64,000 nt of DNA from a virus, in IMG/VR virus record IMGVR_UViG_3300049489_001113, positions 1-64,000 of that record; one strand, given 5' to 3'. Below are positions 2,075 through 53,228 of this stretch, in pieces. The notes beneath the pieces were generated by a model. That model was not told where the DNA came from and did not search any database. It saw only the letters and a program-made list of their open reading frames with translations. How positions within the stretch are numbered: position 1 is the stretch's first letter; the number at the start of each line of letters is the position of its first letter. The position numbers were made by a program, and so were the translations under genes.

Positions 2075-2095
2075 AGCACAAGAAAGGGGAAACCA

Positions 2096-6606: not shown

Positions 6607-6821
<215 letters not shown>

Positions 6822-8937: not shown

Positions 8938-8963
8938 TATGTTGGCGGTACCGTCAACAACTA
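8923..8963. promoter_or_regulatory. Candidate operator palindromes
   Basis: CCGCATATGCGG (perfect, 8923-8934) and GTTGGCGGTACCGTCAAC (1 mismatch, 8941-8958) in an AT-richer gap. Confidence 0.4.
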
Positions 8964-8979
8964 TTACGAGGGGCATCAC

Positions 8980-9432: not shown

Positions 9433-10056
9433 ATGACCACCGCCCTGGATCCGAACTACGCCGACATCGTGACGGGCGCGCCCCCCGAGTTCTGGGAGCA
9501 GCTACCCCACGGTCCGACGCCGAGGCACCGCAGGCACGGCAAGATGGCCGCCCCCCTGTCGGCGCTCACCGATCCGGACTCGTTCGTCCGGGGTAGTGCG
9601 CTCACGCAGGCCGTCATCTTCGGCGGCCTCAGCTTCCTGTTCACGTCGTTCATGTGCGGCATCGGTGCCATCCCCGGCGCCATCTGGGGTCACCACTTCG
9701 GCATCCGGGTGGGCAACCACATGGTGGAGAACCTGTGGGACAAACTCCACGAGGAGCGCGCCAAGTTCCTCGCCCTCGAGGAGAAGGACCGCAAGCGGGC
9801 GGACCAAGCTCTGGTGCAGGCACAGCGCGAGCGTGCCCGCGCCGAGCGTGAGGCGGTCAAGGCGGCGAAGCAGGCGGAACGCGACCGCGTCGCGGCGGAG
9901 AAGCTCGACACCGAGGACCCGCTGTTCCACGGGCTGCTCGGCCTCGGCTACACGAGGGAAGAATGCCTGCCCGCCGTGCGTGCCACGAAGAGCGTGCCGG
10001 ACATGGGCGCCCGACTCCGTGGTGCCCTCAACCTGCTCGGCAAGAAGACCGCATGA
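9433..10056 (+). CDS. Membrane + coiled-coil protein with RuvA C-terminal-like domain
   Basis: Hydrophobic segment at about aa 58-90; C-terminus LLGLGYTREE...LRGALNLL. Confidence 0.65.
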   Translation: MTTALDPNYADIVTGAPPEFWEQLPHGPTPRHRRHGKMAAPLSALTDPDSFVRGSALTQAVIFGGLSFLFTSFMCGIGAIPGAIWGHHFGIRVGNHMVENLWDKLHEERAKFLALEEKDRKRADQALVQAQRERARAEREAVKAAKQAERDRVAAEKLDTEDPLFHGLLGLGYTREECLPAVRATKSVPDMGARLRGALNLLGKKTA

Positions 10057-25652: not shown

Positions 25653-27761
25653 TCAGTGGACCTCGAGCCAGGTGTGGCCGACGGCGGGGTCGGCGACGAT
25701 GGGGACACGCAGCTTCACCGCGTGCTCGAACTCGCGCTTCATCATCTTGGCCGCCTCCTGCGCGTAGTCCTCGGTGGCCTCACAGATCAACTCGTCGTGC
25801 ACGGTGGACAAGATCCGAAACCGCTTGTCGAGTTCGCCCGACTCAAGGGCCGCACGGTGCACGTTGCGCATGGCGATCTTCATCAGGTCGGCGGCGCTGC
25901 CCTGGATGATGGTGTTGATCGCGGCGCGGATCGTGTGCCCGTACTTCCCCTTCGGGCGCCCGTCGTCATCGCGGTCCACTTGCACCTTGTCGAAGCGCCG
26001 GTGTCGCCCCGTCATGGTGCGCACATACCAGTCGTCGAGGAACTTCTTCTCGACCCTGCGATGGAACTGCTGCACCCCCTGGTACACGTTGAAATACCTG
26101 TTCACGTACCGCTGTGCCTCGTCGATCGATACGCCCAAAGTATTACCCAGGAGCCAAGCCGACATTTGGTAACAAAGCCCAAAATTCACCACCTTGGCCT
26201 GCTGCCTGTCGCAGCCCACCTCCTGAGCGGTGAGCTGGTGGATGTCCATCCCGAGGCAGAAGCAGCCGGGGTGAGGGACGCCGTCGAGGGACATCTTCGC
26301 CTTCTTGATCTTGCCGTCCTTCTCGTAGGTCTCCCCCGCACCACAGTTCGGGCAGTCGTACCGGACAACATCCACTTCTCCGGTCGCCCCGCAGGCGCCG
26401 CAGCGCCACGTCCTGTACGCTGCGATTAGCTTCGGGTCGCGCGAGTAGTGGGCCATGAACCGCAACTCGATCTGGGAGAAGTCGATGTCCACCATCTTCC
26501 ACCCCGGTGCCGACACGAAGGCCCCTCGGATCTTCGGTAGCTTCCGCAACCACACGTCCTTCGAGTCGTCATCCGATGGGCGCGGGATGTTCTGCAGGTT
26601 CGGGTTGTTCGACGACGCCCTGCCCGTGTCCGTCCCGGTCTGGTTGAAGTTGGCCCGGATGCGACCGTCTACGTCCGCGAGATCGACGAGGCTCAGCGTG
26701 TACCGCGCCCGCATCGTCTCGAGCTTCCGCCACCGCAGCAGCAGGATGGCCACCTCTTTGCCGCGCCTGTCCCGCGCGATCTTGAGCTGGTTGAGGAGCG
26801 TCTCCTCGTCCGTGCTGTAGAAACCGACAGGGTCATCCTTGGCGCGTGCCGTACCCCTCTCCAACCCGGCGGGGTTCCACCACGAGAGCGTGTCGAACAT
26901 CAGCCTGGACAGCTTCTGCGTCTTCGACGTGGGGAACTCGCCCTCGACCAACGAGTCGAGCTTCTTCTGGATCTCGACCTGCTCCTGCTCTACCTCGCCG
27001 TGGCACTTCGTCAGGATGTCGCGGTCGATGAGCATTCCCGCCCTGCGCATGTGCGCGTAGACCCGGACAACGGGGCACTCCAGCTCGAGGAACTCACGCA
27101 GGAACCCGGCCTCGCCCCACTCCTCGCGCATCTCCTTCTCGTACCGGTGCCACAGGCGCAGCGTGCTCCTCGCGTCGTCCGCCGCGTACGCAGCGGCGGC
27201 CTCGGGGTCGCTGTACTGGATGCCTCGCGGATCCGCGACCTCCTCGAACTCGGTCATCTCGTAGCCGAGATCCTTCCTGGCGAGGGTCTTCAGCCCGAAC
27301 GGCTTGTTGCCCAGCGGGCGCATCCCACGGCAGAGCAACCACTTCGCCACACGAGTGCACACCACCTCGTTCCTGTCGAAGAGCCACCCCTCCCTGTAGG
27401 CCAAGGAGAGATCGAACGCGGCGTTGTGCATGGCGACGCGTCTGCCACTCTCGGCGACGGCACGCATGATCGTGTGCGCCACGTCCATCGACAGGTTGAG
27501 GGGATGAGGCTCGGACCGCAGTACACGTGGCGGCCCGAGCTTCTTCCGCCCCTGCTTGACCTGCACTTCCTCCTCGAGGATGCGCTCGTGTCGGAGCGGC
27601 ACGTACACGCCGTGACGGTTCCCGCACGAGATCGAGAACCCCACGATGTGGTGGGCCACAGGAGAGAGTCCCGTGGTCTCCGTGTCGAACGCGAGGGGCT
27701 CCTCGCGGTCGGACATGATGCGGTCGACGAGATCGCCGACCGTCTCGTTTGTAACGAGCAT
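25653..27761 (-). CDS. polA: Family A DNA polymerase with 3'-5' exonuclease
   Basis: FDTETTG, HNAAFD, YAADDA, TGRASSNNPNLQNIP, DFSQIELR, RQQAKVVNFG..Y, IQGSAAD, VHDE. Confidence 0.96.
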   Translation of the reverse strand: MLVTNETVGDLVDRIMSDREEPLAFDTETTGLSPVAHHIVGFSISCGNRHGVYVPLRHERILEEEVQVKQGRKKLGPPRVLRSEPHPLNLSMDVAHTIMRAVAESGRRVAMHNAAFDLSLAYREGWLFDRNEVVCTRVAKWLLCRGMRPLGNKPFGLKTLARKDLGYEMTEFEEVADPRGIQYSDPEAAAAYAADDARSTLRLWHRYEKEMREEWGEAGFLREFLELECPVVRVYAHMRRAGMLIDRDILTKCHGEVEQEQVEIQKKLDSLVEGEFPTSKTQKLSRLMFDTLSWWNPAGLERGTARAKDDPVGFYSTDEETLLNQLKIARDRRGKEVAILLLRWRKLETMRARYTLSLVDLADVDGRIRANFNQTGTDTGRASSNNPNLQNIPRPSDDDSKDVWLRKLPKIRGAFVSAPGWKMVDIDFSQIELRFMAHYSRDPKLIAAYRTWRCGACGATGEVDVVRYDCPNCGAGETYEKDGKIKKAKMSLDGVPHPGCFCLGMDIHQLTAQEVGCDRQQAKVVNFGLCYQMSAWLLGNTLGVSIDEAQRYVNRYFNVYQGVQQFHRRVEKKFLDDWYVRTMTGRHRRFDKVQVDRDDDGRPKGKYGHTIRAAINTIIQGSAADLMKIAMRNVHRAALESGELDKRFRILSTVHDELICEATEDYAQEAAKMMKREFEHAVKLRVPIVADPAVGHTWLEVH

Positions 27762-28684: not shown

Positions 28685-29050
28685 GTGCGCTTGAACAGGC
28701 AAGGTACGAAGATCTACACCGGCACGGTGGGCGCAGTGGGGACCTCCTACGTGCCCGTGACCGTCGCCGGTCTCCCAAGGGCGGGGTGGATCGAACGGAT
28801 CACGATCGAAGCCACGGCTGGCCCTGGTGGGGCGGCGAGGATCCTGATCCTCGATCCGACCACCTCCGACACCCTCGTCGAGTACGACGACCCGGACAAC
28901 CCCGGGGATCCGATCACCTTCCCCTTCGACGTGGGGGATACGGCGGTCTGGTTCGAGCGCGGCACACTCGCGCTGCTGGTGTCTGTGGCCTGCGACGACG
29001 GCACGAACGCCACGACGCTCTCCGTCTCGCTCTCGGTGCGCGCCCCCTGA
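28685..29050 (+). CDS. Beta-rich hypothetical protein, first gene of the + strand cassette
   Basis: AGGAGG RBS; all-beta composition. Confidence 0.65.
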   Translation: MRLNRQGTKIYTGTVGAVGTSYVPVTVAGLPRAGWIERITIEATAGPGGAARILILDPTTSDTLVEYDDPDNPGDPITFPFDVGDTAVWFERGTLALLVSVACDDGTNATTLSVSLSVRAP

Positions 29051-29074
29051 CCTGACGCACCAGGAGGAATTCGA

Positions 29075-30010
29075 ATGACGGAGTTACGCCGAAGTCCGCG
29101 GTCGGTAGGTTACCGACGCAGCCCGCGCCAGTATTCCAGGGGTGGAGGTGGCGGCACGGCCCAGGAAACCGCGACGTACGTTGAGATGGGCGCGGCGGAG
29201 TTCGTCGGAGAACTCATCGTCCAGGCTCCGGCCTTCACGACTCCGGATGCCCTGACGTTCGAGAGCATCGAGGGTTGGGGGGAGGTGGAGTCTCCTGCCA
29301 CGACCTACGAGGCGGCCGAATCCTACACACCCTCGGACCTCCTACTGCACTTCGATGGCGGTGACGGATCGACGAGCTTCGAGGACTCCTCTCTCGGCTT
29401 CTACGGTGATGGGGACAAGACCGTCACGACCTTCGGCGGGATCGCCCAGGCGGCATCCGCGGCTGTGTTCGGTGTCTCGGGGTGCATCTTCGACGGCGTG
29501 GACGACTACCTGAGTCTCGCGGACAGCGCGGCATGGGACATCCTCGCGAGCCCAGAGTTCTTCATCGAGATGCGCCTGAATCCGGACACTGGAAACCTCG
29601 CTGGGTCGAACGCGGCCATCTTCGCCTACCACTACCAGGACGCCAACAACCGCTGGATCCTGTACCACGACAACGACGGGAACTCCGGCAGCGTGACATT
29701 CAAGGTCATCTCGGCAGGTTCCACGGTCTGCAACGTCGTGGCTGGTGCCGGGTCGCTCGCGGAGGGCACCTACCAGACGCTCGCAGTCGAACGCTACAGC
29801 GGCACGGTCCGCCTCTTCGTCGACGGCGTCATTGTCGCGAGCGCGGCCTTTGCTGGAGCGCAGACGTTCACCGGCACGTTCTACATCGGGGCGGACCACA
29901 CCGGCACATCACGCTTCAAAGGTCAGATGGACGAGTTCGTTATTCGCAGGCCGTACTCGCCTGCGAACGGCGCCAACTACACCCCGGCCGTTGCCGCCTA
30001 CCTCGATTAG
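29075..30010 (+). CDS. Module 1 'A' protein: Arg-rich leader + LamG/ConA-like domain
   Basis: MTELRRSPRSVGYRRSPRQ; LLLHFDG..GST.F.DSS, FDGVDDYL, LFVDG, FKGQMDEFVI. Confidence 0.85.
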   Translation: MTELRRSPRSVGYRRSPRQYSRGGGGGTAQETATYVEMGAAEFVGELIVQAPAFTTPDALTFESIEGWGEVESPATTYEAAESYTPSDLLLHFDGGDGSTSFEDSSLGFYGDGDKTVTTFGGIAQAASAAVFGVSGCIFDGVDDYLSLADSAAWDILASPEFFIEMRLNPDTGNLAGSNAAIFAYHYQDANNRWILYHDNDGNSGSVTFKVISAGSTVCNVVAGAGSLAEGTYQTLAVERYSGTVRLFVDGVIVASAAFAGAQTFTGTFYIGADHTGTSRFKGQMDEFVIRRPYSPANGANYTPAVAAYLD

Positions 30011-30018
30011 GATGTTCC

Positions 30019-31080
30019 ATGCCTTCACTTCAGCAGACCTTCGACCTCACCCCGCAGACGACGCCCGCCACGGCGAGTGCGATGGGCGACCTGATCGACT
30101 CGATCAACACGCTCATCACGACCTACACGAACTGGCGTGTGCAGGCCATCGACGGGGCGAGCCCCAAGAAGTACATCAACCTGGCTCCTCCGCTCGGTTC
30201 TCCGATGGAGAAGATGCGGGTCCTGATCGCCGGTGACGTGACGACGCCTCCGAACGGGGCCCAGGTCAACTCCCCTCATACGGCGGTCGCGACCAACCAG
30301 TGCTACGTCGGTGTCGGTGTGGCGGCGACCGCAGGGGCCACCGCCCCCGATAACGCCTGGGATTCGGCATCGGCCCAGTTCACGGCCTTCTGGTCCAAGT
30401 ACGTCCGGGGTCCGACGACGACGCACTGGGACCGTGTCTGGCTCGTGGTGAGCGACGACATCCTGGAGCTGTGGACCTACAAGACATCGGACGACACGGT
30501 CCGCGGGTTCCGGGTTGGGGCCATCGGCATTGCCCCCACGACAGGAACAGGGCACCAGGGCACCACCCGTCGGATCCTCGGCGTGATGACCACCGGCACG
30601 TATTCGATCTCGAACGACTGGCACTACGAGGTCTCCACGAGCGTCGCCTACTGGATGAACTTCGCCAACGAGGACACGGTAGGGAATCGAGTCGCGCAGC
30701 CTCTCTGCTTCATCATCCACCCGTTGACCGGTGTGGCGACGCGTTGTGAGAGGCGGTCTGGCATCTTCACGGGAGAGCCGGAGGGATCCGGCGACCCACT
30801 TACAGCTACGAACCTCGAATGGAGCACGCCAGGGGCGTTCCCACGTCGGTTCTTCGATACTATCGCGCTGCATGGGTACGCGAATCTCGGTCCGAACATC
30901 CGGTTCGGATGGTTCAGGCAGTTCTACATGTACGGCAAGGGATTGGCTGGGCAGGTCGTCAGGGACTCGAGCAACAACGTCGTGGGGTATCTGACGTCGG
31001 GCTCGAGAGCCACGGCGTACCCAGCGACGATCACAAGCGACCAGGTGATGCTCACGGGCATCGAAGACGCGGTGGAGTAG
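30019..31080 (+). CDS. Module 1 'B' protein, putative virion structural protein (353 aa)
   Basis: Thr/Gly/aromatic-rich; paralogous to the other B proteins. Confidence 0.75.
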   Translation: MPSLQQTFDLTPQTTPATASAMGDLIDSINTLITTYTNWRVQAIDGASPKKYINLAPPLGSPMEKMRVLIAGDVTTPPNGAQVNSPHTAVATNQCYVGVGVAATAGATAPDNAWDSASAQFTAFWSKYVRGPTTTHWDRVWLVVSDDILELWTYKTSDDTVRGFRVGAIGIAPTTGTGHQGTTRRILGVMTTGTYSISNDWHYEVSTSVAYWMNFANEDTVGNRVAQPLCFIIHPLTGVATRCERRSGIFTGEPEGSGDPLTATNLEWSTPGAFPRRFFDTIALHGYANLGPNIRFGWFRQFYMYGKGLAGQVVRDSSNNVVGYLTSGSRATAYPATITSDQVMLTGIEDAVE

Positions 31081-31083
31081 GCC

Positions 31084-31347
31084 ATGCAGAAGATCACGAT
31101 CACGACAGACAGTGGCGACTGGTGGCTCGTCTTCGAGGCCGCGAATCGGATCATCGGCGCCGCCGGGAAGGCACGCGCCAAGGTCATGTCCAAGGACTTC
31201 AACGAACCGACGAGCATGGAGATCGTCCTGGACTTCTACACCAGCACGGTAAGCCCGAACGACGAGGCCGTCAGCATCGCCAACGACGGTCTCAGCACCT
31301 ACGGTGGTGCGCACCTTGTGACGGTCGCCATCGAGCCGGTGGAGTAG
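31084..31347 (+). CDS. Module 1 'C' small protein (87 aa)
   Basis: RBS and position in the module. Confidence 0.7.
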   Translation: MQKITITTDSGDWWLVFEAANRIIGAAGKARAKVMSKDFNEPTSMEIVLDFYTSTVSPNDEAVSIANDGLSTYGGAHLVTVAIEPVE

Positions 31348-31353
31348 TCCGCG

Positions 31354-32349
31354 ATGGCCGACCTCCGGCGAAACCCCAAAGCCGTAGGGCACCGGAGGTC
31401 TCCGAGGCAGAGTTTCCGGAGCACCGGCACGGGCTCACCCCCGTTGTACAGTCAGACTGTCCCGGATGTCACGGCGGGGCCGTACCTCGGATCTCCAGGT
31501 CCATTCACTGCGGGGCAAACCGGTGCGCCGGTCGAGCGGATCGCCGTAGCGGACCCGCTGCTGCAACCGGGACCGTTCCAGGTTCAGAGTGTGATCGGGA
31601 CCCCGTTGGAGCAGATCGCCACGGCGGACCCGCTGCTTCAGCCTGGGCCCAAGCGAGTGGATCAGACGTGGCACGAGCACGACTCGGACCTCTTGCTGCA
31701 CTTCGACGACGGGGAGGGTTCGGGCACCTTCATCGACGACTCTGTGGGTCTCGTTTCAGTAGGCGGGAAGACAGTCACCGCGAATGGAGGCATGGTTCAA
31801 AGAACGGCCTCGGCGGCCCTTGGTTCGACAAGCGGTGGCGAGTTCGACGGCACAGATGATTTCCTGAGCCTCGCGGACGATCCGGCGTGGGACATCCTTC
31901 AGGGCGGTGGAGACTTCTTCATTGAGGCGCGAGTCAAGCACGACGCCTTCGGCGGCGGCTGCTACGTCGCACACGCGGCCAGCGCCACGAACCAGTGGAA
32001 CTTCTTCCAGCGCACGTCGGTAGCGGGGGCCATCGGGTTCTATGTGGTTGTCGGTGGTACGCCCTACACGGTGCTCCAGGCAACCGGGACGATGAGCACG
32101 GGGACGTTCTACACCGTGGCTGTCGAGAGGTGGCTCGGGGTGGTGTACCTCTACATCGACGGGGTGATCGTAGCGTCAGGTGCTCTGACGAACACGGACG
32201 TGTTCACTGGCACATTGTACGTCGGCGGTGGAGGCGCAGGCCCGAGCCTGGACTGGTTCAATGGCGACATGGATGAGCTGCGCATCCAGCGAGGCCCCGG
32301 CCCCCGCGGTAGAAACTACACTCCGAAGACCGTGAACTGGACCCACTGA
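31354..32349 (+). CDS. Module 2 'A' protein: Arg-rich leader + 25-aa repeats + LamG domain
   Basis: MADLRRNPKAVGHRRSPRQ; ADPLLQPGP twice; LLLHFD, FDGTDDFL, FNGDMDELRI. Confidence 0.85.
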   Translation: MADLRRNPKAVGHRRSPRQSFRSTGTGSPPLYSQTVPDVTAGPYLGSPGPFTAGQTGAPVERIAVADPLLQPGPFQVQSVIGTPLEQIATADPLLQPGPKRVDQTWHEHDSDLLLHFDDGEGSGTFIDDSVGLVSVGGKTVTANGGMVQRTASAALGSTSGGEFDGTDDFLSLADDPAWDILQGGGDFFIEARVKHDAFGGGCYVAHAASATNQWNFFQRTSVAGAIGFYVVVGGTPYTVLQATGTMSTGTFYTVAVERWLGVVYLYIDGVIVASGALTNTDVFTGTLYVGGGGAGPSLDWFNGDMDELRIQRGPGPRGRNYTPKTVNWTH

Positions 32350-32358
32350 GAGGACACG

Positions 32359-33495
32359 ATGCCTGCACCCACGATGACCTGGAACCAGACGCCTATCGAG
32401 ACGTTCGCGAGTGGGATCACAAGTCTCAGTGACTTCTTCACGAAGCTCGACGCGCACCTCACGGCGTACTCGACTCTGTGGGAGACGAGCGTGCTCGACC
32501 CAGCGGGCACGAAGGAGTACCTGGAGATCAAGCGGCAGGCCGGGGTCGCTGCCGTCATGCAGAACTTCCGCATGTTCCTCTGTGGGAGCACGGCGGGCTC
32601 GAAGCCACCCACGGGGAACCAGGTCTTCCCGCACAGCAACAACAACACCACGACCGAGAGCACGGTCTTCATGTGCTTCGCCCCGGACGTAGGCGGCACC
32701 TTCCCCAACACCGGGCTCGATACGAAGTGGGAGACCGGGTACCCCTACGCGGGCGACGCGAACCCGTCGCAGATCCCGTACATCAAGGCGAGCCAGCGTC
32801 TCGGCGTCGACATCATCTTCGACCAGATGTACCTCTTGGAGTGCGAGGACATGCTGTTCGTGGTCCTGATCAGACGGTCGGACCAGAAGGTTGCGTTCTT
32901 CGGCTGCGGTGGGATGTTCCTGGCCCCGACGGTTGCTCTTGGAGATCCGATCCGCGGCGACGAGGTGGTCTGGGGTATGGTCTCGACGGCGGGTCGAGAC
33001 CTTGGGTCGAATGGTGGGTACAACATCCACGCCATCGAAGGATCGGGCACTGACCGAAACAACTACACACCGTTCAACGGACAGTTGTCGCAAAACGCCT
33101 CGACGCAGAACCGCCAGTCGCTGTGCTGCCTTCTGACACCCATCGGGCGAACAACGTCCACCGTCTCCGGTGGTCGCGTGTACAGGATCTACGGAACCAA
33201 CAGCTACCAGAACGAATTCATCAGCGGGAACGAAGATGAGAGTGGGTACTGGAACACCGTCGAGTACCTCGACGGATCGAGAGCCTGCGACCCCATCGCG
33301 TACCAGTACGTGGACCAGTCGAACCGCACTCGCATGGGCGAGCTGAGGCAGATTCACCCGGTGTGGGAGTCGCTGGCCCACAAGGAAGTACGCGACGCGG
33401 CGGGGAACCTCAAGGGCTACGACCTGTGTGGCCAGACCAGCTTCGCCGGTACGTCAGGCTACTTCTTCTCCAACGACCCGAACCCCGGACCCTGA
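32359..33495 (+). CDS. Module 2 'B' protein 1
   Basis: Close paralogue of 33499-34620. Confidence 0.8.
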   Translation: MPAPTMTWNQTPIETFASGITSLSDFFTKLDAHLTAYSTLWETSVLDPAGTKEYLEIKRQAGVAAVMQNFRMFLCGSTAGSKPPTGNQVFPHSNNNTTTESTVFMCFAPDVGGTFPNTGLDTKWETGYPYAGDANPSQIPYIKASQRLGVDIIFDQMYLLECEDMLFVVLIRRSDQKVAFFGCGGMFLAPTVALGDPIRGDEVVWGMVSTAGRDLGSNGGYNIHAIEGSGTDRNNYTPFNGQLSQNASTQNRQSLCCLLTPIGRTTSTVSGGRVYRIYGTNSYQNEFISGNEDESGYWNTVEYLDGSRACDPIAYQYVDQSNRTRMGELRQIHPVWESLAHKEVRDAAGNLKGYDLCGQTSFAGTSGYFFSNDPNPGP

Positions 33496-33498
33496 ACC

Positions 33499-34620
33499 AT
33501 GGCTCCTCCATTGATGACGTGGGCCCAGACGCCGATGGACGTGTTCCCCGCGGGGATCACCTCCGCCTCGGACTTCTTCGTGAAGCTCGCGGCGCACATC
33601 ACGGCCTACTCGACGTACTGGCAGACCTCGGTGCTCGACTCCGCCGGCACCAAACGGTACTACGAGATCAAGCGCAAGGGCACACCGGCAGCGGTGATCG
33701 CGAACGCGCGAATCTTCCTGTGCAGTGATGCGGCTTCGGGCCCCCCGAACGCGAACGTGATCGGGCCGCACAACAGCACGACGAACCCAGGCAACGTGGT
33801 GTTCGGATCGTTCGCGCCGAATGTGGGAGGCACCTTCCCCAACACCGGGCTCGACACGAAATGGTTGTCGGGTCTGCCATACGCAGGCGACGCCAACAAC
33901 GGCGGACTCGGTGGCTACGTGAGGTGCTCGCATCGCATGGGCGTCGATCACGTCATGGACGCCATGTGGATCATCGAGAACGAGGACTGCCTCTACGTCG
34001 TGACGATGCGCCGCTCCGATCAACTCACGAGCGTGTTCGGCATGGGCGGGATCTTCCAGGCCCCGACCGTGGGTCTCGGTGATCCTGTTCGCGGGGATGA
34101 GGTGGTCTGGGGTGTGATGACCACCGGGTACTGGTACCTGCACAACGAAGTGAACATGCACTACTCGCACGCCAGCAGCACCGCGCAATCCCGCAGTGCC
34201 GGTTTCGTCAACGGCCAGCTCTGCGACTCCGGCGAGAGGTACAGGCAGGGGATGATCTGGGCGATCAACCCGACGAGCAGGACCATCACGACGGGCTCGC
34301 CCATTCGGGTACTGAGGATCTACGGGGTCCACGACTTCGGGAACGAGGTCTCGGCCATCAACAACGGGAATTGGAACACGTCGGAGTATCCGACGGGGGC
34401 CAAGGCCGGTGACCCTGTGAGCTACTCGAAGGTGGATGGGGGGAGCCGATTCCGCCTCGGGTCCCTGCGACAGATCCGGGCCTTCCACGGCGGGCTCTCG
34501 CGCAGGGCCATCGCCAACGATGTCGGCTCTGTGAAGGGCTTCCTACTCGCCCCTTACCTCACGTTCGACGACAACCACGCTCTCCTGTTCAGCCAGGAAG
34601 CGAACCCAGGAGTTGGATGA
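33499..34620 (+). CDS. Module 2 'B' protein 2
   Basis: Shares VGGTFPNTGLDTKW and RGDEVVWG with the previous gene. Confidence 0.8.
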   Translation: MAPPLMTWAQTPMDVFPAGITSASDFFVKLAAHITAYSTYWQTSVLDSAGTKRYYEIKRKGTPAAVIANARIFLCSDAASGPPNANVIGPHNSTTNPGNVVFGSFAPNVGGTFPNTGLDTKWLSGLPYAGDANNGGLGGYVRCSHRMGVDHVMDAMWIIENEDCLYVVTMRRSDQLTSVFGMGGIFQAPTVGLGDPVRGDEVVWGVMTTGYWYLHNEVNMHYSHASSTAQSRSAGFVNGQLCDSGERYRQGMIWAINPTSRTITTGSPIRVLRIYGVHDFGNEVSAINNGNWNTSEYPTGAKAGDPVSYSKVDGGSRFRLGSLRQIRAFHGGLSRRAIANDVGSVKGFLLAPYLTFDDNHALLFSQEANPGVG

Positions 34621-34883
34621 TGGCAACAACGAACGTCAGCTTCCAGTGCACGTCGCAGTCCGACATGCCGTTCCAGTACGCCCTGACCGCGGCACAACTC
34701 TTTGTGGGGGAGGCGACGAAGGCGGGGCTCGTGGTGGACTCGGTGGACGAGAACCGCGAGACCGGGATCGTCTGGGTCCAGGTCTCCGAGAAGCCAGCGC
34801 CGGACTTCCTCACCACCGTCGATGGGGCACTCGAGGCAGCACTCGGCAGGTACCCGATCCAGATCGAAGCGCAGAGGGGGTAG
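34617..34883 (+). CDS. Module 2 'C' small protein (88 aa)
   Basis: ATGA overlap; AGGAG RBS. Confidence 0.7.
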   Translation: MMATTNVSFQCTSQSDMPFQYALTAAQLFVGEATKAGLVVDSVDENRETGIVWVQVSEKPAPDFLTTVDGALEAALGRYPIQIEAQRG

Positions 34884-34886
34884 TCC

Positions 34887-35189
34887 GTGGCCGAGTACCG
34901 CCGCCATCCGAAGTCGATCGGGTACCGCAGGTCACCTCTGCAGTCCTTCCGCGCGACGGGCAGCGGTGTCGACCCGTCCGCCGATCTCGCGCCGTGCCCC
35001 GAACCCGTGCTGGTGCTCGCGACGGAGGACACGGATACCTTCACGGCCGATCGCGTCGCCTACCAGGAGACCACCGCCGTGTACTTCAACATCGTGGGTG
35101 ATGCCCTGGGCATCAGGGACGGCGGGCCTGCCCCCGAAGCCTTCACGTCGGCGGGTGCTATCATCCCGCTCGGGAGTACCATCGTATGA
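34887..35189 (+). CDS. Module 3 'A' protein: Arg-rich leader, no LamG
   Basis: MAEYRRHPKSIGYRRSPLQSFR; ends FTSAGAIIPLGSTIV. Confidence 0.8.
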   Translation: MAEYRRHPKSIGYRRSPLQSFRATGSGVDPSADLAPCPEPVLVLATEDTDTFTADRVAYQETTAVYFNIVGDALGIRDGGPAPEAFTSAGAIIPLGSTIV

Positions 35190-35389
35190 GCTGCCCGAAT
35201 CCCAACGGTCCCCTCGTCATCGCGGATGGTCGCCTCACGGAGATGCGCTCGCTCGGAGGCGGTGTCGTGATTCCGAGCTTCACGACCGCCGGACAGATGA
35301 TCCCCGCCGACATCACCGACTCAGCACCGCCCTCACCCGGCTTCACCAGCGCAGGGGACATCAAGCCCCTCGGGAGCACCATCGTATGA
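35186..35389 (+). CDS. Module 3 second short A-type peptide
   Basis: Ends FTSAGDIKPLGSTIV; ATGA overlaps at both ends. Confidence 0.65.
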   Translation: MSCPNPNGPLVIADGRLTEMRSLGGGVVIPSFTTAGQMIPADITDSAPPSPGFTSAGDIKPLGSTIV

Positions 35390-36408
35390 GCCTGCCGAAC
35401 GTCAACTGGAAGAAGGGCAAGCGGTTCTGGGTGGCGGTCACGGACAACGTGCCACGTCGGTTCATGGACGCCCTGTACCTGGTCATGGGACCAGACACGA
35501 ACGTGGACCCCGCATCGGTGTCTGACCTCTACTACGACGACTCGGCACGCGTCTCCGGTGTAGGCAGTGCCGTCGGCAGCGTGAACAAGGACCAGTACGT
35601 GGGCGTCACCGAGGCCCTGTACTGGAGCTACGTCACGGGGGCCCTCAACCACCGCGGGATCATCGCGGGCCAGGGTACGGCGACCAAGAGCCCCACTATG
35701 GGTGTCAACGACAGCTTCGCGGCCAACCGCATCATGATGAACTGCACGAAGAATGCGGGCCCATTCACGACCTGGGATGCGGCCAACCCGTTCGGCGGAC
35801 AGAGCTTCGGCTACTGGCACCTGACTGGTGTGGTGGCAGCACCCGCCGTGATCGGTGCGGACTGGTATGAGTGCCAGGAGGCCATGCACATCGCGATCCG
35901 CACCACAGGTGGTGCGGACATGGGCGGGATGGGCGGAGCCATCACCGATCCGCAGAGCACGCTTGCCGCGGATGCGGAGAGCGATGGACGCAACTACGGC
36001 ATGATCACCGCCGCGGACGGCTTCAACACGGATTGGACGGATCAAGTCCAGATCCAATCCGGCTCTCTCGAGCGGGTCACGGAGCACCAACCGAGCAACG
36101 GGTCCAACCACGCTGGGATCCTCACGCCTGGTACGTCCTCGACCGAGACGCTGCGGCGCACCCAGGCGTACGCGAACCTCGGAGAGTCCTTCGGGACGAC
36201 CTACGGCGGTGCCATCGTGGGCTTCCTGGCGATCCCCTTCAGGCGCAGTGGTGACAACATCTTCCGGGGGAACTCGAGGCGGTGGGGTCCCACGAAGGCC
36301 GTGCCGTCCGGGGCTGTGTTCCAGAGCGGGGGCGCGGACGTGGCCTACGCCGGGTGGGCGAACAACATCTACAGCGTGGCCGGTTCGGCCTGCGCCTTCG
36401 CGGCATAG
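35386..36408 (+). CDS. Module 3 'B' protein 1
   Basis: Paralogue of 36418-37443 (WKK, TEALY, WDAA, YEC.EA, GAVFQSGG.DVAY). Confidence 0.8.
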   Translation: MSLPNVNWKKGKRFWVAVTDNVPRRFMDALYLVMGPDTNVDPASVSDLYYDDSARVSGVGSAVGSVNKDQYVGVTEALYWSYVTGALNHRGIIAGQGTATKSPTMGVNDSFAANRIMMNCTKNAGPFTTWDAANPFGGQSFGYWHLTGVVAAPAVIGADWYECQEAMHIAIRTTGGADMGGMGGAITDPQSTLAADAESDGRNYGMITAADGFNTDWTDQVQIQSGSLERVTEHQPSNGSNHAGILTPGTSSTETLRRTQAYANLGESFGTTYGGAIVGFLAIPFRRSGDNIFRGNSRRWGPTKAVPSGAVFQSGGADVAYAGWANNIYSVAGSACAFAA

Positions 36409-36417
36409 GGAGATCAC

Positions 36418-37443
36418 ATGAGCACCCTCGCAACGCTGCACTGGAAGAAGTACGCACGGGTCTCCGTGGCTCTCACGGCGAACGCGCCTGCCGAGTCCCT
36501 GGACGCGATGTGGACGAGGCTGGACCCGGCCGCATCTGGGTTCTACTACGACGGCATCACGGTCCGGACACCGGGCGTCACCGGCCCCACCTGGAGCCGC
36601 TATCAGAACGCCGGCCCTACCACGACGGAGGCCCTCTACAGCTCGGCCTTCCCGGCGGGCGGTGTCGGTGTCTGCATCGCTGGCCAGGACCAGGTCGCGA
36701 ACCCGGTGAAGAGTCCAACGCGGCGCACCCCCGACACCACGAACAGTGCGAACATCCTCATCGCGAACGTGGCAGCCAACGCGGGCGCCTTCGCGTCGTG
36801 GGATGCGGCTGCCGTGTTCGGGGCGAGCGCCCGGCACTTCAACTACTGGAAGTGGGCGACGATGGGCATCGCCACCACGGTCAACTTCGACATGTACGAA
36901 TGCGAGGAGGCGTTCGCCGTCGCTGCCTTCGCGGCAGGAGCCCCTGTCGGGCTTCTCATCGGGGCCATCTACGACCAGCACAGCCAGCTCGGGGCCGACG
37001 CCGAGGTGGGGGGTGCCTCCGCTGGTCGGGTCATGGGCATGGTGACCGGAAACGCAAGCATTGCAACCAATTTCCTGTCGACCAGCGATGTGCTCAACGG
37101 CAACAACGTCGGGCAGTTCATGGACCACCACACGACCGAGGGACAGAACCACAACGGGATCCTGATCCCCGGGCAGACCGGCATTCGAGTCGCCGACAAG
37201 TACGGGAACACGGCCTACGACGGCAACACCTTCCGTACCCTCGGCGGGATCAACGTCATGCAGACCGGCTACCCGTTCTTCGAGAGCCAGGGCTCTCTCC
37301 TTCTTGGGACCTCCCGCCAGAGTGGCCCCTGCCCACAGACCACCCTCGGGGCCGTGTTCCAAAGTGGTGGAGTGGACGTGGCCTACACGGCATTCTCCGG
37401 CTCCCACATCAGCGCCCAGCAGGCGTGGGCCCTGGCGGCATAG
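36418..37443 (+). CDS. Module 3 'B' protein 2
   Basis: Same shared motifs; GGGAG RBS. Confidence 0.8.
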   Translation: MSTLATLHWKKYARVSVALTANAPAESLDAMWTRLDPAASGFYYDGITVRTPGVTGPTWSRYQNAGPTTTEALYSSAFPAGGVGVCIAGQDQVANPVKSPTRRTPDTTNSANILIANVAANAGAFASWDAAAVFGASARHFNYWKWATMGIATTVNFDMYECEEAFAVAAFAAGAPVGLLIGAIYDQHSQLGADAEVGGASAGRVMGMVTGNASIATNFLSTSDVLNGNNVGQFMDHHTTEGQNHNGILIPGQTGIRVADKYGNTAYDGNTFRTLGGINVMQTGYPFFESQGSLLLGTSRQSGPCPQTTLGAVFQSGGVDVAYTAFSGSHISAQQAWALAA

Positions 37444-37452
37444 GAAGCCCAC

Positions 37453-37722
37453 ATGCGCATCCACGACACCGGGTCCGACAACTATCTCGTCGAGTTGATG
37501 CAGTCCCCGCTGGCTGTCGTGGAGCGAGCCCGGGGCGCGCTGTCCATCACCCACCCGGTCTCGTCTGTTGAACTGTTCGGTGGGCGCGCGAAGATCTGGT
37601 TCTATGAGAACCGCGCTGCTCTCGACGCGGACATGGTCGAACTCGCGGCACTGACCTACGAGAACGCTGCTCAGGTGGTCGAAGTCGACAACGATGGAAC
37701 CTGCGTGGACGTCACGCCGTAG
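37453..37722 (+). CDS. Module 3 'C' small protein (89 aa)
   Basis: RBS and position in the module. Confidence 0.7.
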   Translation: MRIHDTGSDNYLVELMQSPLAVVERARGALSITHPVSSVELFGGRAKIWFYENRAALDADMVELAALTYENAAQVVEVDNDGTCVDVTP

Positions 37723-37731
37723 GAGAAGAGA

Positions 37732-38124
37732 ATGTGGAACTGCCACCACTGCTCGAAGGCCGCCCTCGACACGGATGCTCGGTGCCCCCAGTGCGGAGCG
37801 CCGAGAGCCAGAAGCTCGCGGGCCGGAGGGTCTCCGGTGCCCGAGGCCGTCGCGATCAACCAGTGCACGAAGCTCAAGTTCGGTGACGGCAAGGCATTCG
37901 GCTACATGCGCTGGACCGAGGAGTTCGGCAGCGTGACGGACTCCCACCATCAGCTCGTGATGAACATGCGGGTGGAGCCGCCCGGTCTCGCCGAGCCCGA
38001 GGAGATGAAGCAACTCGGTGAGTGGGGCTGGGTCAAGGTCGCCCCGGGCCACTACCAGCGTGAACTGGAGCGAGCCCCGGTCATCACGTTCGAGGGTGAG
38101 AAGGCGAAGCATCTCCGGTTCTGA
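37732..38124 (+). CDS. Zn-ribbon hypothetical protein
   Basis: WNCHHC...CPQCG. Confidence 0.65.
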   Translation: MWNCHHCSKAALDTDARCPQCGAPRARSSRAGGSPVPEAVAINQCTKLKFGDGKAFGYMRWTEEFGSVTDSHHQLVMNMRVEPPGLAEPEEMKQLGEWGWVKVAPGHYQRELERAPVITFEGEKAKHLRF

Positions 38125-48088: not shown

Positions 48089-50719
48089 TCACGAGTCCTT
48101 GATGCCGATGGCCTCTTCGAGATCCTCGACCTGGGACCGGGTGCGGATGTAGAACAGGTTCGCATCCACAACACCGTTGAACTCGACGTGCAGGAGCACG
48201 TGTTGCGGCTCGAGCCCGGAGACGGTGACAGGGGTGGTGAGGTCGATGGTGACCTCGCGGATTCCCGCACCCGCGGTGGTTGTCTCGCCCGAGTTCGTTG
48301 AGACGAGCGTGACAGAGCCGTCGTTCTCGATCTTGTAGGCGAGAAGATCCCACGAACTCGATGCGGTGCTCACGCCGAGGACGACGCGCTCGAGCGTCTC
48401 TCCCGGGTTCAGCAGGATCTGGAAGAACCCGATCGACGGTGCGGACACCGTCCCCTCGTAGAGGGCAGCCGGCCAGTAGGCCACGCTGCCCGGGGGGTTC
48501 ACCGACGTGTACTTGGCGGGGTTGCCAGGGGATGCGCCCGTCGGCAGCCACTCCGCGAAGGGAGTGGCCCCCGTCGCCTCGTTGCGGTTCCACTGGTCCA
48601 TGTAGAACATGCGACGGAGCTTGCGCGCGGAGGCGAACTTGTACCGCTTGTTGTTCCCGAGGGTGACGTTCTCCTGGAGTGCGACCTCTCCCGCGAGCAG
48701 GATGTCGGTGGCGAAGAGGGTGACCATCTGCCCACCCTCGTCTGCCTCGACGTAGGTGGATGCGTCCTTGCCGATGCGCGAGAGCGCGCCCGCACTGTCG
48801 AGGAACAGCCCGGCGTCACCACTCGCAAGCGAGAAGTTCACCTGCCCCGTTGTGGCGCTGAACTGGAGTAGATTCGCGCTGTCGTCGAACCAGAAGGTCG
48901 GGGACCCAAGGGAGCCGAACTTCACGTCACCGGAGAGGACGTGCAGCGAGGTGTCGCCCTGCACCACGTGCGTGCCGGTTCCGGTGAACCCGGCGATCTT
49001 CAGGCCGGCGAACCCGTTCGTGACACCGGTGGGTGCGGCCAACTCGACGACGTAGGCCGACGTGACATCTGCGCCGGCGTCCTTGGTGAGCTGGAATCGG
49101 AAGGCGTGCGCCTGGTTGTCCCCGTCGTTCGGGAACAGGCCGAACGTGAGATGCCCGATGTCGGTGCCGTTCTGGCTGTAGTTCGCGTTCAGCGTCAGCT
49201 CGGACAGGAAGTCCGCGGTGGCGCCCGCGTCGTCGGCGAAGAACTGGATCCACGCCTTGCCCTCGGCCTGGGTGGGGACGAGGAATCCGGAGAGCGAGGT
49301 GGTCACCTCCTCGGTGGTGGCGCCGAGGTACAGGTAGCCGTTGTTGCCCGCCTGCTGGCTGCGCGCGATGAGCGCGTTCGCGAACACGGCCGCCCCCCAG
49401 CCGGATCCGAAGTCGGTGCTTTTCCAGCCTGCCGCATCGAGGAGCGGGAAGGACGTGGCCCCGTCCCACACGTTGAGGTCGATGAAGGGGGACAAGGCGT
49501 TCGCGGCGAGGGCCGGGAAGCGGATGCCCTCCGTGCTCGTGCGGATGATCGGGTGCTGGTTCGCGGCGAGCGACGCACCGGGTCCGACGTCGTCGGCGAA
49601 CTGGATGTCCTTCCACTTCCCGCTCCCCAGGTCGAACTTCGACTTGAGGATGTGGGTGAGCGGCCCGAGCGGGGCCATCTCGTAGTGGCCCGGCGTCGTG
49701 TACACGATGTTCGCCGGCACGATCGTCGGGGCGCCAGCACCGGGCGTGATCGTGGCGATGTGGATCCAGTAGACCTTCTCCTCGTGTCCCTGCGGGGCGA
49801 GGTCCGGGTAGTCCGGCCGGTCGGCGCTCGTGGGGAGGTTCGCGCCGGTGCGGAAGATGCGGTGGAAGTAGCGGACGCGGAGTCGGTGCGACGGCTCCAG
49901 GAGCATCGTCGGCTCCTCGAGGTCGGGATCCTCCTCCATGTCCTGGTCCTCGACCCACACTCCGAGCCACACCTTCTCGACCTGCCCGTTCACGAAGGTG
50001 ACGCTGTTCGGCAGCACGAGGTACTCGTCGCCGATCGCCGGACCGCCGGCGCTGTAGGGGCCGGTGACCGTGAGGCGCGCCGAGGTGGGCACGGCGGAGA
50101 TCGTGTACGTGTTCCCAGCCTCCGCGCCGGTGACGAACCGCACGCGGGCGTGACGGTCGGTACCGTTGCCGACGCCGCCGGAGGGGGCGACCAGGTGCAG
50201 ACTGCCCGTTGCGGGGGTGAAGTCCTTGCTGTCGTCCTCGAACGTGGTGCCGCCGGGGAGGGCGGTGACCTTGCCGCTCGTGATGACGTGCCCCAGGTCC
50301 GAGTAGAGCCCGGCCGGTCCACGGGAGTCGCTGTCCTCGACGAAGAGGCCCTGCACCCAAGACGGGCCCCACATCACGTAGAAGTCGTTCGAGAGCCCGG
50401 CGGTGTGCACCCAGGGCCGCATCGAACCGGGGAACCAGGACGTCGGGGTCGCGGCCACGGTCGGCGCGTCGGCGGGCCACGTCTTCGTCGGGTCCACAGG
50501 GTGGACGAACTCGTAGAGCGCGTCATCGACCGTGACCTGCGTGGTGTCGAAGCCGATGAGCGTGTCGATGGCGCGCGACGTGCGCCAATCGAGCAGGTCC
50601 TGCAACTCGTTGATGTCGGCGTCCGTGATGGGCACACCCTGCTGGAGCAGCATGCGCAGGTAGCTCTTGTTCGCGTCGAAGGTCTTCCGCGAGACGTTGG
50701 CGGTTGGCGTACCCATCAC
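48089..50719 (-). CDS. Tail fibre/baseplate-attached protein with DUF6519-like N-terminus
   Basis: SRKTFD..K.Y...LQQGVPITDADINE; VWLGVW....EEDPDL.E. Confidence 0.75.
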   Translation of the reverse strand: MMGTPTANVSRKTFDANKSYLRMLLQQGVPITDADINELQDLLDWRTSRAIDTLIGFDTTQVTVDDALYEFVHPVDPTKTWPADAPTVAATPTSWFPGSMRPWVHTAGLSNDFYVMWGPSWVQGLFVEDSDSRGPAGLYSDLGHVITSGKVTALPGGTTFEDDSKDFTPATGSLHLVAPSGGVGNGTDRHARVRFVTGAEAGNTYTISAVPTSARLTVTGPYSAGGPAIGDEYLVLPNSVTFVNGQVEKVWLGVWVEDQDMEEDPDLEEPTMLLEPSHRLRVRYFHRIFRTGANLPTSADRPDYPDLAPQGHEEKVYWIHIATITPGAGAPTIVPANIVYTTPGHYEMAPLGPLTHILKSKFDLGSGKWKDIQFADDVGPGASLAANQHPIIRTSTEGIRFPALAANALSPFIDLNVWDGATSFPLLDAAGWKSTDFGSGWGAAVFANALIARSQQAGNNGYLYLGATTEEVTTSLSGFLVPTQAEGKAWIQFFADDAGATADFLSELTLNANYSQNGTDIGHLTFGLFPNDGDNQAHAFRFQLTKDAGADVTSAYVVELAAPTGVTNGFAGLKIAGFTGTGTHVVQGDTSLHVLSGDVKFGSLGSPTFWFDDSANLLQFSATTGQVNFSLASGDAGLFLDSAGALSRIGKDASTYVEADEGGQMVTLFATDILLAGEVALQENVTLGNNKRYKFASARKLRRMFYMDQWNRNEATGATPFAEWLPTGASPGNPAKYTSVNPPGSVAYWPAALYEGTVSAPSIGFFQILLNPGETLERVVLGVSTASSSWDLLAYKIENDGSVTLVSTNSGETTTAGAGIREVTIDLTTPVTVSGLEPQHVLLHVEFNGVVDANLFYIRTRSQVEDLEEAIGIKDS

Positions 50720-51327
50720 TGCACCTCGAACGTGAACCGGATCGACCGGTCGATGGAGATCGAACTCGTCTTGTCGATCCTACTGTGGACGATCCAGTCG
50801 GTCATCAGGCCGGAGTTCGCGACCCCCGTGGCGTTCCCACTGAACACCCCGAACTCGCGGAGCGCGGAGCCATTAGCCTCGCCGAGGGCGAGCGTGGTGT
50901 CCACCTGGATGACGTTCGACGGGGTCGGATCGATGTTGACCCCGGAGACGGGGTTGCGGAAGGTGATGGCCACCGCGGGGATCGCCTTCCGGAACACCTC
51001 CGTGGTGAGAGTGGTGTCGGCGAAGGGCTGGGTCGGCGCTGCCGAGTCCCAGGCGGGCAACCCGGTCCCGAAGGCGAAGTACAGGAACCCCGTGTAGCCC
51101 ACGCGGTTCTTGCACAGCGAGGCGAGGAGCACGGCGTTCGTGTTCTGCACTTGGTTGTGCTGCCAACCAGTGTCCTCGACGATGTTCCCTCGCTCATCGC
51201 GGATGATGTCCCGCCACTCCCCCTTCATGCGAAGGAGTCCCTTCGTCGGATCGATTCCCTCCACGACACGACGGACAGGTTCCCGCACGGGGGGAGGTTG
51301 CAAGAGGATCGATGGGTCTCGGTGCAT
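50716..51327 (-). CDS. Tail-fibre-associated (collar-like) protein
   Basis: AFGTG...TL..EVFRK...GEANG..LREFGVF...IDKT. Confidence 0.7.
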   Translation of the reverse strand: MHRDPSILLQPPPVREPVRRVVEGIDPTKGLLRMKGEWRDIIRDERGNIVEDTGWQHNQVQNTNAVLLASLCKNRVGYTGFLYFAFGTGLPAWDSAAPTQPFADTTLTTEVFRKAIPAVAITFRNPVSGVNIDPTPSNVIQVDTTLALGEANGSALREFGVFSGNATGVANSGLMTDWIVHSRIDKTSSISIDRSIRFTFEVQ

Positions 51328-51336: not shown

Positions 51337-52131
51337 CTACGGGTAGGGGGCGGGTGGGGGTGTGCCAGCGTATCCGAGCGCCTCGTGGTGCGTGCGGACC
51401 GTGGTGGTGTTGGTGGTACGGGCAGCGACGTTGGAGACCATGAGCAGGATCCCAGGGCCCCAGGTGCCAGAGGCCGACTCTTCCGGCGCGCCGAGCGTCT
51501 CGATGTAGTTGAGCGTCTCCGCGAAGAAGTCCTCCCCCATCGGAACGATGGTCTCGAGGATGGTCGGGGGGCGCAGGATGACGGCGATCTTGGCCCACGA
51601 TGTCTTCAGCTCGTCAGGGACGATGCGATCGATCTTGTTGATCGTGATCCTGGTCAGCTCGTCCGACACGTCTCCGACCGGCTCGAGCACCAGCACGAGC
51701 CCGTTGAGGCAGTGCCAGTTCTCCTGGGTCGGCGTGTACTTCAGCTCGTCGCCGATGGTGCCGATGAGGCCCACGTCCACCGATCCGACGTCCGGCGTGG
51801 TGCAGCGGGTGTCGTTGGAGAACATGACGTAGCGCCAACCCTCGTGGGCGGTGACGTCCCATTCGGCCACGCTCTCGACGAACGCTGTGATCGCGTCCGC
51901 CCGTCCCTTGCGCTTGTACAGGGAGACCGCGTTGAGCGTCTCCTTCCGGCGCTTGCCCTCCGGCAGCTCGAAGTTCGTCGGCCAGCCGATGAGCCAGTCG
52001 ATGTACGGGAGCAGCTCGGCCTCGACGGTGTCGACCTTGTAGTTGTCGAGCAGGCGCTCGATGTCGGTCTTCACCGAGTCGGCGACGGTACCGAAGATCT
52101 GCAGGAAGCGTTCGAGTGGGGAGGCGCTCAC
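51337..52131 (-). CDS. Baseplate wedge/tail protein I-like
   Basis: PLERFLQIF, ELLPYIDWLIGW, LYKRKG; GTG start with GGAGA SD. Confidence 0.8.
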   Translation of the reverse strand: MSASPLERFLQIFGTVADSVKTDIERLLDNYKVDTVEAELLPYIDWLIGWPTNFELPEGKRRKETLNAVSLYKRKGRADAITAFVESVAEWDVTAHEGWRYVMFSNDTRCTTPDVGSVDVGLIGTIGDELKYTPTQENWHCLNGLVLVLEPVGDVSDELTRITINKIDRIVPDELKTSWAKIAVILRPPTILETIVPMGEDFFAETLNYIETLGAPEESASGTWGPGILLMVSNVAARTTNTTTVRTHHEALGYAGTPPPAPYP

Positions 52132-53228
52132 GGCAGATCTCCGTCGATGACCTGCCAAGCCTGGGGCATCAGGTCGTAGAGCTTCGAGGAGTGCCCGTAC
52201 CTTCCGTAGGCGAAGGAGCGAGCGAAGGTGGCGTTGTCGGCGTACGCCCAGAACCAGTCAGGGTTCTCCGCACTCGGGGGCACGAGGATGAACAGCGTGT
52301 AGTACCGGAACTGCCGCTCGACGCGGTCGGCGTCGTCGTAGTCCTCGTGGTGCTGGTCACCGGGCACCTTCCGGTCGGTGAACACGGGCGAGGTGATCGA
52401 GCCGTCGACGAACCCGTCGTGGATCTGGTCGGCCTGTGCGTCGTCGCTGTCGCGGGGGTACTCGATCGGCTTCGCAACCAGCCTGTACCGCCGCACGTTG
52501 TTGAGGATCGCGAGGTCGTACGGGCTCTCGTTGAGCTGGTCAGCGAAGTCCGCGACGAGCGATTCGTTCACGTCCACGGTCAGCGCGGCGCCCGTGACTT
52601 CTGGGTCGACGTCGAAGTCATAGGTCTGCCGCGCCGTCACGAGTGGCTCCCACCCGTACCGCTCCGCCTGCCGACGGAACTTGTAGAAGTCGTCGCGCAT
52701 GTTCACGCTGCGCGCGTCGTCCACCACGGTGAAGGACACGGTCTCCGTGATGGTCGCACCGTCGCAATCCTCGATCGAGATCTCGAGCGTGCCTGTGCTT
52801 CCTGGGAGGAGTCCGAACAGCGGCTGCACCACGACGGTGGCCTGTTGCCCCTCCTCGTAGTCGAACAGCTCGATGCTGCTCGCGATGCCGTCGAAGCCGG
52901 GTTGGAAGGTGGTGCCTGTCACGACGTCCACCCAGCCGTCAGGGCTCTCCGCCGGGTAGGGTTGCTGCCGGTACCGGATCAGCAGCGTGGCCATCTCGAG
53001 TGGGAGGTTCCCGTCCCGCAACCGGACTCGGAACCGCGCGGAACGGGGCACGTCGGTGGCCATGTGCACGGGGGCGAGAGGGGTGATCTCCACCGCCGGT
53101 ACGGCGTACTCCGGCTCACCGCCGAAGAGCCCGAACGTGCCGCGCACCTCGCCCGCGTCCGGGTCGCCGGAGGACATGCCTCTGGTGACCCAGGCGAGAC
53201 CGATGCGGGCCCCGGGATTGCAGGCCAC
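52128..53228 (-). CDS. Putative baseplate structural protein ending in a gpI-like N-terminal motif
   Basis: Ig/FN3-like composition; C-terminus KLYDLMPQAWQVID. Confidence 0.7.
   Translation of the reverse strand: MACNPGARIGLAWVTRGMSSGDPDAGEVRGTFGLFGGEPEYAVPAVEITPLAPVHMATDVPRSARFRVRLRDGNLPLEMATLLIRYRQQPYPAESPDGWVDVVTGTTFQPGFDGIASSIELFDYEEGQQATVVVQPLFGLLPGSTGTLEISIEDCDGATITETVSFTVVDDARSVNMRDDFYKFRRQAERYGWEPLVTARQTYDFDVDPEVTGAALTVDVNESLVADFADQLNESPYDLAILNNVRRYRLVAKPIEYPRDSDDAQADQIHDGFVDGSITSPVFTDRKVPGDQHHEDYDDADRVERQFRYYTLFILVPPSAENPDWFWAYADNATFARSFAYGRYGHSSKLYDLMPQAWQVIDGDLP

Follow-up and report, generated by a model that had tools for sequence, protein, structure and literature searches.

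Docking peptides and lateral fibres of described phages

Several phages mount their secondary receptor-binding proteins through short conserved N-terminal peptides, as in K1-5/SP6, G7C and Klebsiella phages (Latka et al. 2019, PMC6872550). Each phage group has its own docking peptides, which may be no longer than 7 residues and attach to a branching domain or to an adaptor. They are hepta- and undecapeptides in K1-5/K1E/SP6, occur in the Klebsiella KP32, KP34, Menlow and PhiK64-1 groups, and in G7C have a counterpart in gp63.1, which docks on gp66 through a positively charged surface (PMC6872550). A second described system is that of JBD30, where three gp47/gp48 heterodimers make each lateral fibre and the fibre binds the type IV pilus (Valentova et al. 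2024, PMC11445458). Here we analyse a 27-residue leader peptide that opens three proteins, A1, A2 and A3, encoded by an uncultivated phage in IMG/VR (record IMGVR_UViG_3300049489_001113). The stretch of DNA that was analysed (the window) is the first 64 kb of this 100,478-bp genome, which is 97% complete according to CheckV and has 65% G+C. The leader-bearing genes lie in a plus-strand island (28685-38124) flanked by minus-strand replication genes.

The best explanation, to which we give about even credence, is that the leader is an N-terminal docking (attachment) peptide of three paralogous adaptors, that is, a known strategy in a new form. As in branched receptor-binding protein systems, a short N-terminal sequence is common to several putative appendage proteins of one phage, the remainder of these proteins differs, and the sequence is specific to its phage group. 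The difference lies in the carriers, which are here laminin G (LamG) or miniature adaptors heading cassettes of gp47/gp48-type genes and not tailspike depolymerases, and in the peptide itself, a tandem basic RRxP repeat to which a docking role would be assigned by analogy. The leader sequence, the type of carrier and the cassette context are new, whereas docking through a shared N-terminal peptide is already known as a principle.

A conserved basic leader on three proteins

The three copies of the leader are the following:

29075..29155, plus strand: leader copy 1, the first 27 codons of A1 (MTELRRSPRSVGYRRSPRQYSRGGGGG; net charge +6, isoelectric point (pI) 11.9)
31354..31434, plus strand: leader copy 2, the first 27 codons of A2 (net charge +6)
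34887..34967, plus strand: leader copy 3, the first 27 codons of A3, with a GTG start (net charge +5)

Each of them opens an open reading frame, 3-7 nt past the preceding stop codon and with a GGAG-type ribosome-binding site upstream. The original prediction, made from the letters of the window, had placed conserved leaders at 29075, 31354 and 34887, and the back-translated pattern RRxPxxxG[YH]RRSPxQ bears this out, with three matches in the window against 0.00 expected from 100 shuffles. Six-frame regular-expression searches found no fourth in-frame copy in the whole 100,478-bp genome.

Any two leaders are identical at 15-17 of 26 residues, and 9-11 of those identical residues are encoded by different codons, including changes between both serine codon families (AGC/TCT/TCA) and between CGN and AGG for arginine. 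Third codon positions differ at 16-17 of 26. Since the residues are kept while the codons have diverged, selection acts on the peptide, as had been proposed, and the leader is under purifying selection. A DNA-level repeat or recombination site was discarded, the leader DNA having a column identity of about 73% and no long identical run.

The leader is strongly basic (net charge +5 to +6, pI ~12), whereas the remainder of each A protein has a pI of ~4.1-4.4. Direct reading shows that a 9-residue unit, built around hydrophobic-R-R-x-P, is repeated in tandem within the leader. The stretches that follow the RR pairs are polar and rich in Gly, Ser, Thr and Pro, with no hydrophobic run. The leader therefore shares its N-terminal position and its RR pairs with twin-arginine translocation (Tat) signals, but its arginines are followed by neither a hydrophobic h-region nor an AxA site. 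The original prediction had already set aside a Tat or Sec signal for want of a hydrophobic core, and we dropped it on the same ground.

Short, very basic peptides also serve as arginine-rich RNA-binding motifs, such as those of lambda N and P22 N, and as SPKK minor-groove motifs. The leader resembles them in being short, very basic and partly composed of S/N-P-basic units, and it might accordingly be a regulatory or structural arm that binds nucleic acid, or one that binds a polyanionic host surface polymer. Such an arm would be in keeping with so high a charge and pI within 27 residues, with the repeated RRxP[KR] units, and with the lack of a predicted folded structure over the leader, although the AlphaFold2 model of A1 (3-row alignment, mean predicted local distance difference test score 34.5) is unusable and too poor to count. 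However, the carriers are LamG and fibre-context proteins with no nucleic-acid-related domain, in a gene context that is structural, and an Rfam scan of the island gave no element or other RNA feature that could be a target. Moreover, the N-terminus of known fibre proteins is usually their virion-proximal end. We regard a polyanion-binding arm as improbable, and nothing in the analysis supports either the nucleic-acid-binding arm or the cargo loading that had been suggested for the leader.

The carriers of the leader

The A proteins head three tandem paralogous cassettes, A1-B1-C1, A2-B2-B3-C2 and A3-J-B4-B5-C3, whose genes are separated by 3-9 nt or overlap by ATGA. The leader carriers, and the leaderless gene that follows the third of them, are:

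29075..30010, plus strand: A1, 311 aa, leader, linker and Laminin_G_3 domain (PF13385, 57.1 bits)
31354..32349, plus strand: A2, 331 aa, leader, two linker repeats and Laminin_G_3 domain (PF13385, 44.9 bits)
34887..35189, plus strand: A3, 100 aa, leader and 73 further residues, no LamG domain (no Pfam match)
35186..35389, plus strand: J, 67 aa, without leader, with ATGA overlaps on both sides

Both LamG matches exceed the Pfam gathering cut-off of PF13385 (27.6 bits), and the LamG parts of A1 and A2 also match PHROGs annotated as virion, tail-fibre or baseplate. A1 and A2 are full-length paralogues, 46% identical in the LamG domain, and A3 is a short form whose body after the leader is unrelated to theirs. 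The description of the carriers as three otherwise different proteins consequently has to be amended, because A1, A2 and A3 are paralogues derived from a tandem triplication of the cassette. Within the A proteins the leader is the most conserved part, with 59-67% identity against 46% for LamG and 21% for the linker; a short conserved N-terminal peptide is thus followed by divergent parts, up to the unrelated body of A3.

A common origin by triplication would also allow the leader to be nothing but the slowest-evolving piece of the A proteins, with a local structural role such as the start of folding or oligomerisation and without any addressing function. The position of A1-A3 as paralogues within three paralogous cassettes, the absence of the motif from any unrelated protein in this genome, IMG/VR or metagenome contigs and the good conservation of the LamG domain of A1 and A2 are all consistent with such a remnant. 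Yet A3, which lost or never had LamG and has a different body, has kept the same level of leader identity with saturated synonymous sites, and an unstructured, Pro-rich and highly charged peptide would make an unlikely folding nucleus. We consider this explanation unlikely.

Two further observations concern the remaining parts of the A proteins. A3 (35140-35189) and J (35340-35389) end alike, in FTSAGxIxPLGSTIV, and each is ATGA-coupled to the next gene. Similar C-terminal ends (..TGTIV, ..GSIL, ..SYTTxSV) are found elsewhere on fibre proteins that precede B homologues (L003-L006, just before 10001), and the motif may represent a conserved element facing B. The A2 linker (31528-31650) contains two copies of a ~20-residue repeat (..ADPLLQPGP) in a cassette with two B genes, and for A1 there is a single linker and a single B gene. 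A rule equating the two counts does not generalise, since in other phages a lone A-like gene is followed by 3 to 6 B genes.

A fibre-type fold in the B proteins

The other cassette genes are:

30019..31080, plus strand: B1, 353 aa, assigned to a JBD30 gp47/gp48-like fibre-forming family (five-B alignment, family profile match)
31084..31347, plus strand: C1, 87 aa, small and acidic
32359..33495, plus strand: B2, 378 aa, the modelled protein (AlphaFold2, predicted template modelling score (pTM) 0.85)
33499..34620, plus strand: B3, 373 aa, 49% identical to B2
34617..34883, plus strand: C2, 88 aa, overlapping B3 by ATGA
35386..36408, plus strand: B4, 340 aa (alignment and family profile)
36418..37443, plus strand: B5, 341 aa (alignment and family profile)
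37453..37722, plus strand: C3, 89 aa

An end-to-end alignment of the five B proteins (340-378 aa) gives 18-49% identity (18-27% between subfamilies), and just 12 of its columns are invariant, mostly Gly or Pro. The C proteins, all small and acidic, are 18-27% identical to each other. No Pfam, PHROG or PADLOC family was found for the B proteins, and a protein homology search with B2 returned only B2 itself and B3. A profile built from the five B proteins retrieved 257 remote full-length relatives among 1.84 billion representative proteins; 60 relatives of the family that were scanned had no PHROG match and no credible Pfam match, and two relatives, P0017 and P0009, had no tblastn match in 50,697 phage records. 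Searches for related loci with B5 and P0009 in IMG/VR and with P0017 in genome contigs gave nothing.

We modelled B2 with AlphaFold2 from an alignment of B relatives. In a Foldseek comparison the model matched the JBD30 baseplate structure (PDB 8rk3) with a probability of 1.00 and an E-value of 4e-5, over chains of 305 and 317 residues. By VIA, the match has a Z of 16.1 and a root-mean-square deviation of 4.1 over 257 of 305 residues at 13% identity, the next best match having a Z of 4.7; no structure other than 8rk3 matched B2 convincingly. We take the matched chains to be the fibre-forming gp47 and gp48, based on chain length and on the description in PMC11445458. The fold search of B2 in BFVD led to 'virion structural proteins' from phages of Xanthomonas (FoX4), Burkholderia (KL1), Achromobacter and Sphingomonas. 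The B family, as modelled, is thus shown to have a fibre-type fold. Given this predicted fold and the PHROG matches of the LamG domains, the island is best read as three gene sets for virion appendages, though it lies outside the structural module.

The same evidence bears on a role in capsid targeting or cargo loading, whereby the leader would direct its carriers into the prohead. The T4 capsid targeting sequence is an N-terminal peptide on internal head proteins that is removed by the prohead protease, and the leader is likewise a short N-terminal peptide common to several proteins. But the B neighbours have a tail-fibre fold and not that of an internal protein, LamG domains are typical of external appendages, and direct reading with the T4 rule in mind reveals no protease-type cleavage motif after the leader. 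We hold capsid targeting to be very improbable.

The likeness to JBD30 concerns both the fold, which B shares with gp47/gp48 over most of its chain, and the gene order, since two of the three cassettes contain adjacent divergent pairs of B genes, as is the case for gp47 and gp48. There are also clear differences. In JBD30 no A-type adaptor has been described, the fibres being attached directly to proteins of the upper baseplate and distal tail (PMC11445458), no sequence link is detectable for the B family by Pfam, PHROG or tblastn, and the phage analysed here is a myovirus with three cassettes.

One B relative, P0031 (663 aa), is a natural fusion of two B-family domains. Together with the gene pairs B2/B3 and B4/B5, this fusion is consistent with B proteins working pairwise, as gp47 and gp48 do in JBD30. 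A complex prediction for A3, B4 and B5 (score 0.09, mark 0.32) returned the verdict 'no answer' and counts neither way.

Related loci in other phages

We found B homologues preceded by A-like or fibre proteins in three further settings. A low-GC myovirus fragment (G003), whose baseplate J protein is 38% identical to the J-like protein of the present phage, contains on its structural strand a tail-fibre module where a 397-aa A-like protein is directly followed by a B homologue and then by small proteins. The N-terminus of the 397-aa protein reads MALPLSYRSYNP..., followed by GGGG, and its LamG match is sub-threshold (21.8 bits). This tail-module synteny, along with the tail and virion PHROGs of the LamG domains and the neighbouring fibre-fold B proteins, bears on A being an appendage protein.

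In high-GC podovirus-like contigs, a fibre protein of 170-190 aa that carries a DHSH motif is ATGA-coupled to a B homologue, which is followed by a 65-aa protein. The N-termini of these fibre proteins, whose starts were checked, are of the type M-x-x-[IV]-P-L-Y-R, for example M-A-R-I-P-L-Y-R and M-I-R-V-P-L-Y-R-R-L-N-P-T-Q, and one of them (YRRLNPTQ...SFSAGSG) resembles the second half of the leader (YRRSPLQSFRATGSG).

Finally, low-GC viral contigs contain 3 to 8 tandem B genes, and one contig at least nine. Five A-like paralogues that precede such arrays have about 105 N-terminal residues in common, and their downstream parts differ. Eight B genes are found in tandem in L157 (IMGVR_UViG_3300009161_000070, 537-9437) and six in L150 (2-6844), and at least nine in IMGVR_UViG_3300042898_003434, the source of L155 and L165.

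From these three settings it follows that a conserved, phage-specific N-terminus recurs on the protein heading a B set, and the leader is the shortest and most basic version of this design. The recurrence can also be turned towards an assembly role within each cassette, in which the leader would bind the B (or C) proteins encoded alongside it, perhaps to nucleate or cap the B fibre, and not a common virion socket. Here as in other phages, A and B are neighbours under tight or translational coupling, and aromatic-Arg N-termini on A-like proteins recur beside B in myovirus-like as well as podovirus-like contexts, with B as the obvious common element. However, a leader that contacted B would be expected to diverge with it, whereas the leaders are 59-67% identical and the B subfamilies only 18-27%. 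Furthermore, the third cassette combines two B genes with J, which lacks the leader but ends in the same C-terminal motif as A3; this suggests that A faces B with its C-terminal part. Of the alternatives we take this one most seriously, while still thinking it rather unlikely.

Searches for the leader itself were made in several ways. A word-based protein search with residues 1-40 of A2 produced no candidate, at a sensitivity so low that A1 itself was not recovered, and the leader had no match among PDB sequences. By tblastn against the 50,697 phage records, the only matches of A2 were LamG proteins from Rhizobium and Acidovorax phages, where the leader is missing. The back-translated leader pattern hit 100 stretches in IMG/VR, all of which were Arg-rich translations of high-GC DNA in the wrong frame. 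Once tightened to take in the start codon, the pattern hit none in IMG/VR and 34 in metagenome contigs, all junk. The pattern search that had been recommended to list other fused domains therefore yielded no further carrier, within the limit that back-translated patterns would miss divergent leaders. With the exact motif on no other protein in these collections, and with carriers that derive from a cassette triplication, the proposal that the leader is a portable tag of unrelated proteins finds no support. The other half of that proposal, an addressing or docking tag for virion attachment, fits the context of fibre-type cassettes and LamG domains, by analogy with described systems.

A proposed docking model for the leader

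If the leader is indeed a docking peptide, each adaptor A would be expressed together with the small C protein of its cassette and with its one or two B proteins, the fibre-forming components of gp47/gp48 fold. What varies in A (linker, LamG or short tail) would deal with the B proteins of its own cassette, and the extended, proline-punctuated basic leader, with its two hydrophobic-RRxP units, would attach to an acidic site, the same for all three adaptors, on a single-copy virion component. Three different appendages would in this way use the same kind of socket. Candidates for it would be a protein of the baseplate or of the tail-fibre network, or possibly the acidic protein A0, which is encoded by the first plus-strand gene of the island:

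28685..29050, plus strand: A0, acidic single-copy protein of 121 aa, net charge -6, no family

The argument for a single-copy socket comes from the rates of divergence: because the leaders are 59-67% identical and the B and C proteins 18-27%, the leader probably contacts a partner common to all cassettes. That A is a virion protein and that its leader binds a partner are inferences, as is the nature of that partner.

Several points weigh against a docking role. The island is opposite in strand to the structural module, lies outside it and sits within the replication module, so that co-expression with virion genes cannot be taken for granted. Pfam and PHROG family scans of the tail module, which matched only baseplate J, P2 I-like and BW3TFN, revealed no T4 gp10-like branching domain or adaptor of the kind present in branched receptor-binding protein systems. 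The resemblance of the leader to the M..PLYR N-termini is short and has no statistical support. Nor did the exact motif turn up a second time in IMG/VR or metagenome contigs, so that comparison lends its role no support.

A bolder version of the docking hypothesis would see in the A-B-C cassettes an undescribed and widespread modular appendage system, with the cationic RRxP peptide as a universal plug that mounts several gp47/gp48-type fibres on one socket. We give this a low but appreciable chance of being right. The cassette family around the leader is in any case a more novel object than the peptide. One cryo-electron microscopy structure and metagenomes are so far the only places where gp47/gp48-like fibres with adaptors have been seen. 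Should the leader prove self-sufficient, it would illustrate how one attachment principle can carry three host-recognition devices, and provide a compact handle (27 residues or fewer) for swapping or adding receptor-binding modules. Were the plug able to act alone, foreign domains could be loaded onto virions by means of a very small natural tag.

The phage genome and its other genes

The phage is of myovirus type. Its tail module, as seen in Pfam and PHROG scans, includes:

61114-62931, minus strand: baseplate J-like protein

P2 I-like (51337-52158) and BW3TFN-like (50716-51327) proteins are encoded downstream of it, also on the minus strand, and further single-copy structural proteins are one of 366 aa (52128-53228) and a fibre of 876 aa (48089-50719). 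No polymerase among the 50,697 sequenced phages is more than 28% identical to the family A DNA polymerase encoded here, from which we conclude that the phage has no close cultured relative. Its polymerase (25653-27761, minus strand) contains a Cys-rich insertion, CGACG...CPNCG.

A sigma-70 promoter scan gave 0 sites. A PADLOC search with ten island proteins gave no match, and a defence-system reading was dropped in view of this result and of the fibre fold of B.

The nearest clusters of A0 in the ESM Atlas are unnamed viral proteins of 111-126 aa. A0 is collinear with 123-132-aa proteins of the podovirus-like loci L003-L006, L152-L154 and L164, a likeness that is not significant (hhalign E 0.31); these proteins are encoded a few genes upstream of the fibre gene. 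There is also a weak lead from A0 to Bbp16 (score 0.80). Lastly, a patatin-like phospholipase (PF01734, E 8e-15) is encoded at 54402-55271 on the minus strand, amid the tail and baseplate genes.

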